Origin: Candidatus Hermodarchaeota archaeon
GTDB lineage: Archaea > Asgardarchaeota > Heimdallarchaeia > Hodarchaeales > Hodarchaeaceae
Reading direction: 5' to 3'
DNA: 32,000 nucleotides
Assembly: GCA_048886185.1 (NCBI GenBank)
Contig: JBHLKY010000004.1
Span: 150,001-182,000, forward strand
In this document: positions 1 to 24,120 of the stretch, in pieces
Numbering within the stretch: the stretch's first letter is position 1
Layout of the letters: each line of letters begins with the position of its first letter
Notes under the pieces: model-generated
The model's input: the letters and a program-made list of their open reading frames with translations, nothing else
What the model was told of the DNA's origin: nothing
Databases searched by the model: none
Position numbers and translations under genes: made by a program

Positions 1-3000
1 TTACCATAATTTGGATCTGAAGATATAAGTTCAACCCGAATAAAATTCAAAATAGGAGATTCTTGGGCTTCCCAGATATCAATTCCATGACCATGTCCAA
101 TTATTAATTCTAAACATCCATCGAAATCACTATCACTTGTTGCTAGAGTATTAACCCGAGTACTCATGGGTGGAAAATCGTAGATGGTATGAATATTACC
201 AAATTCAGATTGGAGAGCTAAAAGAAATCCTGTATTTTTCTCGACAAAGGCCTTCTCTTTCTCCCATTCACAGATGTAATAAACTGAAGCAGATCCTGCG
301 ACATCATTCCAGCCCCCTTGAGCTTCTGGATAGGTACAATAAGGATAAACTCCATACGTTCCACCGTACATCCATACATGATCCTGATTGGCATAGTTAT
401 TGGGATTTGGACAAAGCCAATTTGAATAGGTAAAGGGTTCCCCCGTAACCCATTGCCACTGTCCTTCAACAAGCTCATCAGTCAATCCAATCCAAAATTG
501 ATCCACATCAGCTGCTAGATTCGCTACAAACTCATTTTCTTCTAGATCAGCTATTGTGACTAAATGGCCTCCTAAGCTTTCGCAGAGAGCTTTAGCTTCA
601 CTCCAAGTCTTTGCCTCAGTAAAAAGTTTATACTCATTACCCTTGAAAAAAATCCCACCATGAGTAGAAAAGCTCTGATTAATTCCACCTATCCATAATT
701 CGGTTGCGTGGTCTTGATTTATATCAGCGAAAAGAATTGTTTGAATATCAAGAGTAGGGTGAAATTTGGGATTTCCAGGTTGGTCATAGAAACCTGTACC
801 ACTGATGGATTGAAAACTTTCCAACCAACCAATTTCTGGATCCCAGCGAAGTAAGAATAACTGTCTACCGGCACCAAGTGCAATCATACTTCCACGTCCA
901 TCAAAATCAGGAGTAATCGCTAAAGCTGAAAATTGGGTTGTATCGTAATCTAGCACCATATTTCTATAATCTATCTCAAAAATTAGTTTAAATTCGTCGT
1001 TGAAACCTGTTGCTTCAAAAATATATACTTGAAGGCCTGCTGTGATGATAAATTCTTCATTTCCATTACCATTATAATCAAAACCTGCTGTGAGTAGATT
1101 ACCATGGTCGTAGATTGTCCTTTGAAATGTACCTGATACTCCAGGAAACTCTTGGAATGCATAGGGTGAAAAGTTTGTTATTTCAGTATGATTGAGGTCA
1201 TGAGTCTTAAAGGCACGTTTATATGTATTTTCAATTAAGTGTTCGAAGACATAGACATTATTATCGTAGTCACTAACGATGATTTCAGCATCAGTGTCAC
1301 CGTCCAAACTGTAACTCGTGGTTAATGTTAATGTCCAATCCTCAACCTCTTTAAGGTTGGACCATGATTTAACCATTGCATAGCCAAAATTAATGGCATT
1401 TGGAGGAGATTGTTTTAAATTTACTTCTAATTTTAATAATTCTGGATTTGTCCCAATAATATACGAGTTTTGTTGATCTGTCTCAGCATGAAGTTCTCTT
1501 AAGTAGTTCTGATCCCCATTCCAAACCCAAATGGATTCTGCGGAGTTTTCACTCGAATTTGAAGGGATAATGACTCCAGAAGTGAAATTATTAAATCGTA
1601 AAGATCCATCAGTAGTTGGGTTTTTCATCAAATAGGCATTTCTAACCCACAGAGGATCTGTTGGAGAACCATGATTTTCAAAAAAGTCCATACCATACCG
1701 TAACTCCCCAGAACCTCGTCCATATGAATATGCGATGTCATAATCATCATCATGATCGTAATCCCAAGCATTAGGTGAAAAAATGGGATTAACAGAAGCT
1801 CGCTCATTTAATTCTTGGAAAAATTCGAAATCAGATTTAAACTGTGGACTAGCTGTAGTTCCAATATTCCACAAGAGAGCTAAGCGACCATTCGATAGAA
1901 TTATGTCATCTAGCATGTCATTATCAATGTCTACAATGGTAGCTGAAGGATAGGTGGTGGACTCAGCAAGAAAATTATACAAATGGCCATCAATGTCCGT
2001 TAGAATTTCTGAAAATTCATATTGATCAGTTTCCCAATTCCATTTCCATATCCCAGGTAGAAGTGATGAATCATAAGCAGTTGGTCTTCTAAAAGGTTCT
2101 GGATACCAAGGGAATACAATAACCTCTTCTTTTAGGTTTCCTTGATCGAAATCACCGAAAGCGAGAGTAAGTAGTCTACCTGCGTACTGTGGATAACTTT
2201 CAATAAGATCTGTGGCGGGGTAGGCAGCAGGATTAAGAAATCCTCCATTAAAACTTTCATAGATCAGGATATTATTTGTAGAGTCAATTCGTGTAACCAG
2301 AAGTTCTGATCCCGAAGTATCTGCGACATCAGCAATACTCAAGTGATGTAAATTTGTAAGAGATGTAGAGGTTCCAGCATCAAATTCTTTTGTTTCATCT
2401 TTAATATATCTCCATGAAGGAATTAGGGATTTTTTAGGTGTTCCTTGAATACTCCAAATGGTTTCTCCAAGGTTGAAATAAGCATCTGTATAAGAATCCC
2501 AGTCTTGAGTATAAGCTGATAGCGTTATTCCAAAACTATCTGCTGGAATCTCGGTTAAAATTGCTTCACGGGTTCGATATTTTCTATAATAAGTTATATT
2601 ATTTAATTCACGATGAAAAGCAAGAAGTCGACCATCGGATCCACCGAAAACTAGTTTTTTGGTGGCTTCAGCTTCATTATATGAGAGTGATAATGTGTCA
2701 ATTGTAACAGAGGTTGCAATTGTTAAGGGTCTTGCGACAAACGGAAACACAACCGCGTCGACTCTACGTTCTTTAAATTCACTCGATGTGGTTAGTGTGA
2801 TACGAATATATTGCGCTGACATCATCTTTTTCTTAGCAAATAGTGGATCAACATCAATTGCTAATCCCTTTCCAGCCCCCATTGTCCAGATATCATTGTT
2901 ATCAACTTGGTGCCAATCCATGAGGTTGTTCCCAAAAGATACATTCCATTCATCTGTTCGGATTATGGTTTCAGAATCATCGAAGATAATGTATATATCA

Positions 3001-23500: not shown

Positions 23501-24120
23501 TATTCTTCATATTTTGTTTCTAAAATATCTGCAACTGACCAGATACACCAGAGATAGACAAGTTGTGCATCTAATACATCAGAGCCTTCGATCCAAATGT
23601 TGGTTTGAGCCATGGATAAATATCGATAAAGATTGTTTGTGTTTCCCAAACCAAGTACATGGTCAAATTCCGGATGGACTTCTAAGAAATTAGCAAATTC
23701 CTTCCAAGGGACAATATCACCTATAATAACTCCTTCTATCGAAGTATCAAACACATAGATGAGAATATTATACCGAGACAACTGAAGTGCTTTTATTTCA
23801 TCCAAACCAGCGACAGGAATTAGATCAATAGAGGTATAAACAAGACGTAAAGAGTTGTACACCGAGACAGCAGTCCCTGCAATTAATAGGTCACTTGCTG
23901 CATAAAGGACTCCAATACGTTTTTCAAGGTCGTATGAATAAATTAACTTTTGAGATTGTTCTTCAACAGCTTTACTCAATTCCGATCGATACGCTACAGC
24001 GGATATTGGACTACTAGATACAATTAAAATTATCATGATGCCCATTGAGAATTTTAATATTCTTCGGGGGGTGATATTAACAGCTTTTAGAAATTTACAT
24101 AATAAATCCAGTTCATACAT
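17515..24120 (-). CDS. Giant membrane-anchored protein with amphipathic helical region, amphipathic beta-sheet region and thrombospondin-type-3-like Ca2+-binding repeats, 2201 aa
   Basis: Signal-like segment ending ...SSSPISAVA|YR. Long helical-pattern region at about 21370..23260. Beta-pattern region at about 20570..21360. About 25 D-[TS]-D-x-D repeats. A short Ig-like segment, then C-terminal TM (ILIGGLIGFGSVSLLLLLI) and the basic tail WRRK. AAGGT lies 9 nt upstream of ATG 24120. Confidence 0.88.
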   Translation of the reverse strand: MYELDLLCKFLKAVNITPRRILKFSMGIMIILIVSSSPISAVAYRSELSKAVEEQSQKLIYSYDLEKRIGVLYAASDLLIAGTAVSVYNSLRLVYTSIDLIPVAGLDEIKALQLSRYNILIYVFDTSIEGVIIGDIVPWKEFANFLEVHPEFDHVLGLGNTNNLYRYLSMAQTNIWIEGSDVLDAQLVYLWCIWSVADILETKYEEYSDFNKAGINIRKLSLIWFAENIDAVVERNLQPIDPMGEEDLLLKQKQFEKMKERFPAEITPKFNIRELPKENSPAMYVKKSTEESLGIGDMLIGLLPLESGLQGPIGGILDILLEIFIEMVGDEINISEDAMEMIETAFMAIEALLGFFSGGDISVESALHTLFEILEDIVPFAEDLKPYIDLLIDAIPLLRGDWSAISDIIGRLLDLVIPEDWQWFKTVITEIIEVSTQVIDEMHNEGGNFLDALLSVISERYLDVLIDKFFELIGVDVGEYINGLKTFFKAIMDFLATFDLKKTIQEYLPDLIGFIIDTLGGGSGASVTSPEDAETWSNIIGILLNLLMSAIGYTDDNLAGVFKDLLELLDSKFTEISYAVDQVQNLIQQINTIISQAKENALQNVNDFVSNLETAITQTGFVFHSDSTKNAKIKEMIVSGATMVAGAINGDFTNKDQLPNLNNTVDFLIDVTEFIIGDIDDNKELKIKKAVNNIVAIIAVISDKDELKQYISSTIEKFKQQFEDPVALIDNTINFLIAGAEGLNINTDVLEKIRTFAEMGVGFYNIIMAAKENSIQGILQALIQNIGMGLIKEFTGVDISIVNDILKFIFPKFFGVESSELPTAHELISSLINQLDQFLDDSDVSSATGGVLSTVSEVKDAVEAVLGFIFNAKDIFTDGIRWLFGQLMDWIGGQIESLINMLLDAITNALNATDLLPPEWSGSLPVGLGDFSLFSIGIELGLYPHFGFDESAFSDWMLDIVFGGLNPFSGGIAEFFEKIFSFFELIPTFKAGFEIGGFGTEENPMMAFLLESLGLELEFSGKGWFELELFTIKGGVFDTDNFFKIVEWGFSFTITISRTFTLLDFLTGGTAGALNAIGEYIGLDAITVTVSFGIFVEVVKRAASATGPEEGSFTLKITIGLAVHLGIDLFIVGISFDFSLEIILTFFQDLVAPTPLQIFLEIILRFSVTLTFLFCDWEIEFEWKPLDPSPLELTPSTKAEQEENGAMGLDDDGDGLGNAYEENTPGLNPNSEDTDGDGLTDKFETQTSKTDPILPDTDADGLDDFVEYYNTKTNPRQPDSDWDGLTDYEEAIIIQTDPLDTDTDEDGIDDNYEVNHAYDIKGITPSVEYVMIGGVKYFDRTDPLNPDTDGDGLLDGEEGEYGPYYGLDELYNETAAAGTDTPPLIFNGGYTHPLDNDTDDDTWEQLLDGMIAPSKAHAWVKIKDGSWILTTDWWEVKGMPIVYMIEGEPVLNVTYTNPCNPDTDGDTGGISPDSGYDRTGAPDQPHNEPPVSEILNSDGYELSLDPPSDPCDADTDNDGLIDGLEGTRGSTSNHTHYNNPDTDGDGLGDLQELLLGSDPRHPDTDHDMVIDGDEYFKYGTQPSNPDTDFDGLLDGEELYWYHTNPFSIDSDGDRIGDWMELMVYFTDPMDEDTDNDRLNDYEEIFIYRTKAHDPDTDSEEWNDLNHNNRYDGLEEWDIVYDENGNGVWDGDYLRDGDEVYGTYNGIKTDPLVWDTDLDSITYFIVYAGGKVDYTFRLSDGDELYYYGTNPTYGDTDLDGLTDGWELYLGSGIIPNFTPMPLDPLNDDTDGDTLLDGLELMIANFTSLIYPWIGFYSVRPYNTSPVLLDSDFDFLNDSEEIDDYFTRPDRVDTDNDTLSDYDEIFFHLTDPLKNDTDSDGLLDCNETTAVAMLVGIESKDIKYSIQVTGYWDTVTGILYNPIYPTNATDPDTDNDFLPDGAELDPELPYNQAGTDPMITDSLVNGTKDGLLFDSDHDYIPDGYEFFGEPNGTLSPTALIAGGGPFNPDSDHDGLIDGLEWLEYGTNASNWDTDNDTFSDGLEILLGTNATEKTNASDIYAALDAYRGDLVITSPIETTYETESLTVTAANFTIFSNVKYRFIDGPVSRDEIDMIYNKRQYQWQSQLLTLSKGTYLLEVIGTKGDNSEVTKRIRFYVQMEPLQLEPILIGGLIGFGSVSLLLLLIEFVDIQKFLFWRRKEGGF
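17975..20495 (-). repeat. Protein-level array of about 25 TSP3-like Ca2+-binding repeats (consensus T-[DN]-P-x-x-x-D-[TS]-D-x-D-G-L-x-D-G-x-E)
   Basis: Counted by eye in the translation, e.g. NPDTDGDGLLDGEE, DPRHPDTDHDMVIDGDE, NPDSDHDGLIDGLE. Units are diverged at DNA level, so this is not a nucleotide tandem repeat. Confidence 0.85.

Follow-up and report, generated by a model that had tools for sequence, protein, structure and literature searches.

The question raised by this locus is whether a row of giant, co-oriented genes for surface-type proteins encodes one adhesion system in an Asgard archaeon. The stretch of DNA analysed, hereafter the window, comprises 32,000 nucleotides (nt) of Candidatus Hermodarchaeota archaeon (order Hodarchaeales; assembly GCA_048886185.1, contig JBHLKY010000004.1, positions 150,001 to 182,000), which is G000:C4:150001-182000 in the notation used below for contig coordinates. 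Hodarchaeales is the order thought to be closest to eukaryotes. Bases 3-24120 of the window are filled by four long co-oriented open reading frames (ORFs) on the minus strand, summing to ~7,900 amino acids (aa), which a preliminary description had taken for a single four-gene cluster for calcium-dependent adhesion and glycan capture. The four co-oriented genes and their thrombospondin type-3 (TSP3), FG-GAP, PPC and C-type lectin domains were confirmed by the ORFs and by Pfam, and the boundaries had to be moved: the fourth gene, B2, runs beyond base 1 of the window to 3,162 aa and is followed by A2, D and E. The whole block consists of seven genes in 40.7 kb (G000:C4:133409-174120), most of which the window shows, all co-oriented in the order A1-B1-C and then B2-A2-D-E. 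FG-GAP domains are present in B1, TSP3 repeats in the A proteins and lectin domains in B2, C and the lectins are largely limited to certain lineages, and the four-gene cluster was redrawn as two A-B units. We consider it on balance probable that these are two paralogous A-B surface modules with lineage-specific third subunits, that they form part of the contact surface of Asgard cells, and that the propeller subunit of type 2 has gained lectins. The genes and intervals of the block are as follows.

A1: 17515..24120, minus strand, 2,201 aa
B1: 8046..17513, minus strand, 3,155 aa
C: 5272..8046, minus strand, 924 aa from the ATG at 8046, or 936 aa from an upstream GTG at 8082
Gap between C and B2: 4872..5271, minus strand, 400 nt, AT-rich
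B2, ORF for the N-terminal 1,623 aa, cut by the window edge: 3..4871, minus strand
Full B2: G000:C4:145383-154871, minus strand, 3,162 aa
A2: after B2, beyond the window edge, co-oriented, 2,258 aa
D: after A2, co-oriented, 846 aa
E: after D, co-oriented, 913 aa
Intergenic region upstream of A1: 24121..24846, 726 nt, AT-rich, divergent

The block was read as two tandem operon-like units, A1-B1-C (unit 1) and B2-A2-D-E (unit 2), because the 400-nt gap splits C from B2, while by their coordinates B2 and A2 overlap, as do D and E, and A2 and D are 12 nt apart. The gap is likely the boundary of the two units and might hold an internal promoter, and the 726-nt region upstream of A1 is the likely promoter region of unit 1. 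The tight coupling claimed for the first three genes was seen at both junctions: the TGA stop of A1 is followed after one base by the ATG of B1 (TGA-N-ATG), the TAA stop of B1 overlaps the ATG of C (TAATG), and GGAGG precedes the starts of both B1 and C. The four genes first described as one system are unit 1 together with the first gene of unit 2, and the two units stand apart elsewhere. In a genome of another Heimdallarchaeia family (G026), A1-B1 and B2-A2-D lie on separate contigs, each with unrelated neighbours, and in G008 units 1 and 2 are on different contigs.

The conservation of the A-B pair was followed by a back-translated search of species-representative genomes, which returned 46 loci, all but two in Asgard or ‘archaeon’ metagenome-assembled genomes (MAGs); the exceptions (L041 and L052) are short contigs binned as bacteria. 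The closest locus, at 91% in the matched stretch, was in CP070695.1 (‘Ca. Heimdallarchaeota bin6’), followed by several ‘Ca. Hodarchaeota’ and ‘Promethearchaeota’ MAGs and, at greater distance, by Ca. Heimdallarchaeum aukensis and endolithica and by numerous Ca. Thorarchaeota. The host is an Asgard archaeon of the class Heimdallarchaeia and of Hodarchaeales type, in agreement with the earlier supposition of an Asgard host, and among named records the MAGs of Ca. Hodarchaeota and Heimdallarchaeota come nearest. The complete genome CP070695.1 (G010) carries the same seven genes in the same order and with the same flanks, at 59-86% identity, and a single A-B pair was found in other Heimdallarchaeia families (G024, G028, G038 and G034). 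A was next to B in all 35 loci with usable neighbouring sequence (29 as A-then-B, 4 as B-then-A and 2 as one frame); these loci span Heimdallarchaeia, Thorarchaeota and other Asgard MAGs, and the A/B junctions of the relatives are similar to the tight start-stop coupling seen here. The synteny looked for across archaeal MAGs is strong for this A-B core; C is mainly confined to this order, and the lectins almost entirely to this genus. With the best-conserved A module (residues 880-1195) as query, the A family was detected in 86 of 400 Asgard genomes, in 23 of the 90 high-quality ones and in 37 of 85 genera.

In the two fused proteins from Thorarchaeota, the transmembrane (TM) segment of A, a lysine-rich basic loop of ~60 aa and the N-terminal hydrophobic segment of B are kept between the A and B parts; given this layout, both ectodomains would project from the same face of one membrane. 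The fusions may be regarded as evidence of the Rosetta-stone type, pointing to a joint function of A and B but not proving that the two touch. The two copies of the pair are paralogous as well: A2 has the same architecture as A1 with 33% identity end to end, and B1 and B2 have two modules in common at 38-39% identity and differ by inserted cassettes. Trees were built for the A heads and for the first 1,450 B residues of the same 24 pairs. In both trees, type 2 fell on one side of a branch with 100% support in the Shimodaira-Hasegawa-like approximate likelihood ratio test (SH-aLRT), and the same four lineage groups recurred. Because the trees split alike, A and B were duplicated together as a unit, each copy keeping its own partner. 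The gene order is inverted in type 2 (B2-A2) relative to type 1 (A1-B1), and no further A or B copy was found in the genome by tblastn. The second pair type with its own third gene (B2-A2-D) occurs in two Heimdallarchaeia families, type 2 with a D-like third gene being seen only in this genus and in family f5.

The domain content of the proteins was analysed by Pfam, with matches judged as bits against the curated cut-offs, and their topology by Kyte-Doolittle hydropathy only. A1, B1 and C each show a hydrophobic segment at the N terminus and a single one at the C terminus, the latter followed by a short tail, which is basic in A1 and B1. Candidates for the signals, single TM segments and basic tails of the preliminary description were hence recovered for A1 and B1; in C, the one TM segment is followed by a 37-aa tail with mixed charges, and the N-terminal hydrophobic stretch of B2 was seen by eye and is below the hydropathy threshold. 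The parts of the A and B proteins that matter here are as follows.

A1 architecture: N-terminal hydrophobic segment, head of ~1,150 aa, TSP3-repeat stalk of ~850 aa, membrane-proximal domain, one TM segment, basic tail
A1 head: 20551..24120, minus strand, aa 1-1190, the signature of the A family
A1 TSP3-type Ca2+-binding repeat region: 17971..20538, minus strand, aa ~1195-2050
B1 architecture: N-terminal hydrophobic segment, ~70-aa linker, multiple FG-GAP-type beta-propellers with inserted domains, Asp-box segment, one TM segment, tail KKRRLQ
First C-type lectin domain of B2 (CTLD1): 3111..3461, minus strand, aa 471-587, EPN at 552-554 and WND at 571-573 kept
Second C-type lectin domain of B2 (CTLD2): 252..662, minus strand, aa 1404-1540, NPN (1489) in place of EPN, WND at 1521 kept

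The strict motif DxDxDGxxDxxE occurs 11 times in the repeat region of A1 and 15 times in A2, and the A1 region also holds the looser D-x-D-x-D motif 24 times. TSP3_bac (PF18884) was matched above its cut-off of 25 in both A1 (31.6 bits) and A2 (84 bits), and the membrane-proximal domain of A1 is Ig-like by eye only. Such long arrays of thrombospondin type-3 Ca2+-binding repeats are shared with bacterial TSP3 surface proteins (PF18884) such as CglD and MtsD, a protein of cohesion. Among characterised TSP3 proteins, the nearest is CglD, an adhesin for gliding in Myxococcus, the repeats of which were linked to adhesion and traction (10.1101/2023.10.19.562135). A1 scored 120 bits against the CglD equivalog NF033765 (cut-off 400), in a match that covers the repeats only (residues 1682-2018). 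Unlike CglD, the A proteins are TM-anchored and not lipoproteins, lack the other domains of CglD and are paired with B.

B1 matched FG-GAP_3 with 126.5 bits (cut-off 26.9) and FG-GAP with 66.9 bits (cut-off 22.1) and carries 11 D-x-[DN]-x-[DN]-G-x-x-[DE] loops. The model of its residues 1-1190 (pLDDT 70, pTM 0.65) showed propeller blades at 105-390 and 650-1118, interrupted by a disordered stretch and by an insert rich in beta strands (residues 515-650), which lies within the first propeller. This insert may correspond to the jelly-roll modules of the preliminary description. The nearest solved folds are the multi-propeller scaffolds SF3B130, DDB1, CPSF160 and Elp2; sequence searches of the PDB with B1 and C gave no match. 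In B2, the part inside the window has FG-GAP repeats and two Lectin_C (PF00059) copies of 120-123 bits (cut-off 22.6), and the part beyond the window edge has a lamin-tail domain, more propellers, a weakly hydrophobic C-terminal segment and the tail RKKRRFQT.

The triad for sugar binding at Ca2+ site 2 (EPN then WND) is complete in CTLD1 and variant in CTLD2. The best PDB relatives of both domains are those of the animal mannose-receptor family, DC-SIGN and mannose-binding protein (E down to 3e-30), and like these receptors CTLD1 keeps the EPN and WND of a Ca2+-dependent mannose-type site. The B2 domains differ from animal C-type lectins in that they sit in a prokaryotic multi-propeller giant, have a non-canonical cysteine pattern and, in CTLD2, carry NPN. 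C-type lectin domains were found in 12 of the 400 Asgard genomes, 10 of these 12 being of this genus; because they are almost confined to it, the lectin cassettes of B2 are regarded as a recent gain of local extent. Two more C-type lectin domains lie outside the block, at G000:C16:45576-45884 in a 1,479-aa frame and at G000:C1:139303-139605 in a 438-aa frame. In G008, a similar lectin gene of ~1,500 aa directly follows the A1-B1-C unit.

The third genes are different in the two units. C has a PPC domain (47.1 bits, cut-off 25.9) and PPC-type repeats, and its strong matches were only in this order (13/21 in family f1 and 2/2 in f2), with three weak partial matches elsewhere in the class. As C is largely restricted to this order and the lectin domains almost entirely to this genus, both are late additions and not core parts. 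D combines a NosD-type right-handed beta-helix with a TM segment and, in its cytoplasmic tail, a TPR motif, and its repeats are Ig-like by eye with no family match. The type-2 third genes of family f5 matched no Pfam family and align to residues 379-690 of D at 26% identity, and were treated as putative divergent orthologues of D. E, seen only in this genus, is all TPR. Sequon density per 100 aa was 1.0-2.35 in A-D, with C the highest in the block (2.35), compared with a genome median of 0.54, so that sequons in A-D are at two to four times the median; in E they are sparse (0.33), a density like that of cytoplasmic proteins. By these features, A-D look like membrane-anchored, sequon-rich surface proteins built of Ca2+-type modules.

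A fusion of B1 and C, suggested by frames of 4,042 and 3,915 aa in G008 and G003, was rejected on inspection of the DNA, which has a single in-frame TAG between the two genes at the following sites.

TAG site between B1 and C in G008: L083:12240-12330 (G008:C14)
TAG site between B1 and C in G003: L084:8820-8900 (G003:C149)

In both genomes the TAG shortens B1 by ~60 residues, so that its TM segment is lost, and C continues in frame beyond it. The early TAG may yield a B1 without TM segment or possibly, by stop-codon read-through, a B1-C fusion; a TM-less B1 would need its N-terminal segment or a partner to stay on the cell.

We propose that the core of the locus is an ancient two-gene module, in which A would present a head on a stalk of TSP3 Ca2+ repeats with a C-terminal membrane anchor, and B would be a membrane-anchored chain of FG-GAP-type propellers. 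The two subunits would work next to each other on the outside of the one membrane that bounds the cell, with Ca2+ stiffening them and N-glycans attached, as part of the irregular protein coat of Asgard cells, and this coat would be the contact surface of the cell for partner cells, particles or glycans. The pair was duplicated as a unit into two types, and each type would later have taken up a third subunit of its own, the PPC-repeat protein C in type 1 and the beta-helix protein D in type 2. In this genus, unit 2 also contains the cytoplasmic TPR protein E next to D with its TPR-like cytoplasmic tail, and B2 has gained the two C-type lectin domains, of which the one with the intact EPN/WND site could bind mannose-type sugars in a Ca2+-dependent manner. 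Exposure at the surface, the binding of Ca2+ and of glycans, contact between A and B and a role in adhesion are thus predictions. The heteromeric, glycosylated, Ca2+-dependent adhesion complex of the preliminary description is likewise suggested by domain identity, gene linkage, the natural fusions and sequon density.

Such a module is of interest for what has been seen on cultured cells. L. ossiferum lacks an ordered S-layer and shows instead ‘complex unordered densities’ together with ‘numerous surface proteins’ (PMC9834061), a Heimdallarchaeaceae culture has an amorphous protein coat (10.1101/2025.11.06.686947), and Asgard cells adhere while crawling by adhesins that were left unnamed (PMC13716822). 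Cultured Hodarchaeales attach to partner methanogens through protrusions, with unexplained surface filaments at the contacts (10.1101/2025.02.26.640444). Several papers propose that the coat mediates cell-cell contact, adhesion in crawling and attachment of syntrophic partners, which is central to models of eukaryote origin, and none of the papers on the coat cited here names its proteins. The locus supplies candidates for them, namely a conserved two-gene module, fusions with both parts predicted on one membrane face, two diverged pair types and a lectin with predictable sugar specificity. The locus stands out by its tandem double pair, by a second type of pair, by the narrow distribution of C and E and by the genus-specific insertion of lectins into B2. 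In keeping with the earlier claim that the arrangement is undescribed, our literature search found no paper describing the A-B pair.

Several findings weigh against the proposal of paired contact-surface modules. The A family was found in no more than roughly a fifth of the sampled Asgard genomes and in 0 of the 135 genomes of the largest family; being patchy and not pan-Asgard, it cannot be something that Asgard cell contacts require in general. Roughly half of the genomes of this genus gave no match, many of them being incomplete. Topology comes from hydropathy alone, and the B1 proteins of G008 and G003 indicate that anchoring is not uniform. Cultured Hodarchaeales, which are peptide degraders, have S-layer-like structures assigned to separate, homotetrameric proteins (10.1101/2025.02.26.640444), which makes A and B unlikely to form the main lattice. 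Genes in linkage diverge in parallel with or without contact between their products, and the mirrored trees therefore fit the pairing without proving it. Size alone is not special either, as the genome has many other giant ORFs of up to 12,625 aa. One complex prediction, of A1 residues 55-300 with B1 residues 100-850 from their own alignments, scored 0.00; it concerns a single domain pair and counts neither for nor against binding. Giant proteins are common in this genome in general, with ~15 further frames of >2,000 aa besides the one of 12,625 aa.

The same genes could also encode independent coat proteins of a glycocalyx-like type, each glycosylated and standing alone, with an adjacency that reflects co-regulation and tandem duplication and with no complex or dedicated adhesion, and to this we give a minor though real chance. 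It would agree with the description of Asgard surfaces as unordered protein coats (PMC9834061; 10.1101/2025.11.06.686947), with the many giant surface-type ORFs of the genome and with third genes that vary between lineages. It does not sit well with the adjacency of A and B, start-stop coupled, in 35 of 35 testable loci across classes, with their occurrence as one polypeptide in two loci or with the duplication of the pair as a unit, and the TM-less B1 variants would again depend on a partner or on their N-terminal segment for retention on the cell.

The proposed paired contact surface was also weighed against nutrient capture, in which a surface scaffold of cellulosome-like or SusD-like kind would trap glycans, glycoproteins or peptides for extracellular breakdown and uptake. 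PPC, NosD-type beta-helix, lectin and BNR-like Asp-box modules are common in secreted hydrolases and lyases, the cultured relatives degrade peptides and genes for a peptide ABC (ATP-binding cassette) transporter adjoin the block. However, Pfam and NCBIfam found no catalytic domain in any of the seven products, Pfam found no sialidase family in the block proteins, and the strict S-x-D-x-G-x-[TS]-W Asp-box occurs only once per B protein (at 1496 in B1 and 2086 in B2). Moreover, the PPC and beta-helix genes are lineage-specific additions outside the conserved core, and other species of the group have not retained the transporter genes as neighbours, the permease neighbour on the same side being kept only in the closest species. 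We therefore think nutrient capture quite improbable.

A further possibility, to which we assign only a slight chance, is that each A-B pair makes up an integrin-like receptor for adhesion, composed of two subunits, in the archaea nearest to eukaryotes, and thus a prokaryotic outside-in system. The A head and the B propellers would then form a Ca2+-dependent ligand-binding head on long stalks, the type 1 and type 2 pairs would recognise different targets, with the lectin-armed type 2 binding glycans on syntrophic partners, and contact would be relayed to the cytoplasm by the TPR-like tail of D and by the TPR protein E. If true, this would be relevant to the way in which the archaeal host kept hold of its bacterial partner. 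Like integrin alpha and beta, A and B would be single-pass subunits of a type-I-like kind whose cytoplasmic tails are very short, and their genes form a conserved pair; B appears to be built on FG-GAP propellers with D-x-D-x-D-G Ca2+ loops, as one integrin subunit is, and A to start with a generic alpha/beta/alpha sandwich domain. Unlike integrin alpha, the B model has several propellers with nested inserts, and its top 50 structural matches are without integrin alpha; unlike integrin beta, A has no EGF or PSI modules but a TSP3 stalk and a head of no known family. No vWA family, as in vWA/MIDAS domains, was found in A by Pfam and NCBIfam, and vWA was not among the listed structural matches of its N-terminal domain, which does not exclude a vWA fold. 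The integrin tail motifs GFFKR and NPxY were in none of the tails (...FWRRKEGGF in A1, KKRRLQ in B1, RRRRALV in A2 and RKKRRFQT in B2). The resemblance of the A-B pair to integrins is functional at best, and the pair is not a member of that family. The integrin-like proteins that our literature search found for Asgard archaea are a different family, which adjoins tubulin/FtsZ genes; Liu et al. 2021 is cited in that context for integrin-repeat proteins in Asgard genomes.

The head of A itself was matched by no Pfam or NCBIfam family, and its profile retrieved only 247 clusters among 1.84 billion representative proteins. Its AlphaFold2 model, from a 29-sequence alignment (pLDDT 62, pTM 0.35), showed a confident alpha/beta/alpha sandwich at residues 60-250, a poorly resolved helical region at 300-910 and a beta-meander of long strands at 916-1190; as the model is weak outside residues 60-250, we do not claim a new fold. 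Foldseek gave no match to the PDB at E<=0.001. VIA-align, with Z in an overall range of 8.6-10.3, related the first domain to generic folds (sugar-binding-protein, LacI lobes, CHAT and flavodoxin-like; Z 9-10) and the meander to porin and autotransporter translocator beta-barrels (Z 8.6-9.5, 160-205 residues aligned, root mean square deviation 4.3-8.4 Å). A membrane-active head, pore-forming, fusogenic or lipid-handling, which the TSP3 stalk would present to a neighbouring membrane under targeting by B, is very improbable: the ~600 aa of amphipathic helices with a long meander nearest to porin and autotransporter barrels, the internal hydrophobic stretch at A1 residues 1117-1135 and the weak Foldseek similarity to lipid-transfer proteins (E 0.015-0.12, probability <=0.23) speak for it, and the low confidence of the model, the frequency of Z values in that range among unrelated folds and the absence of any match to toxin or fusogen families in Pfam and NCBIfam speak against it. 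The N-terminal alpha/beta domain of A (residues ~50-230) also occurs alone, without the rest of the head, at the start of other large proteins of 800-2,500 aa (P0083, P0100, P0110 and similar matches).

A search of sequencing runs with window bases 15000-24900 matched four sediment-metagenome DNA runs of one study, from which this assembly may derive, with no RNA run among the matches. The remainder of the window and the other edge of the block hold the following genes.

24847-28590, plus strand: divergent gene for a 1,247-aa MacB/FtsX-type permease with two FtsX domains and a MacB periplasmic core domain
28608-29015, minus strand: 135-aa ORF between the permease gene and the peptide ABC-transporter ATPase genes, with no family in Pfam
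29027-31998, minus strand: two oligopeptide/dipeptide-type ABC ATPase genes (358 and 336 aa) and a permease gene, by eye
L007:9533-13348, plus strand in L007 (G000:C4:129532-133347), adjoining the TPR gene E: 1,271-aa protein with DUF7948, SBBP beta-propeller repeats and bacterial Ig-like domains

The MacB/FtsX-type permease has an extra polytopic C-terminal region of ~400 aa and adjoins A1 only in the closest species. The ABC-transporter genes fit the peptide-degrading lifestyle of cultured Hodarchaeales and are unlinked to the surface block in other species. The flanking genes of ~1,250 and ~1,270 aa were considered as paralogous bookends of the block, which was rejected as they are unrelated, one encoding the MacB/FtsX-type permease and the other the SBBP/Big-domain surface protein. 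G010, too, has the latter, a 1,271-aa protein of surface type that borders the block.

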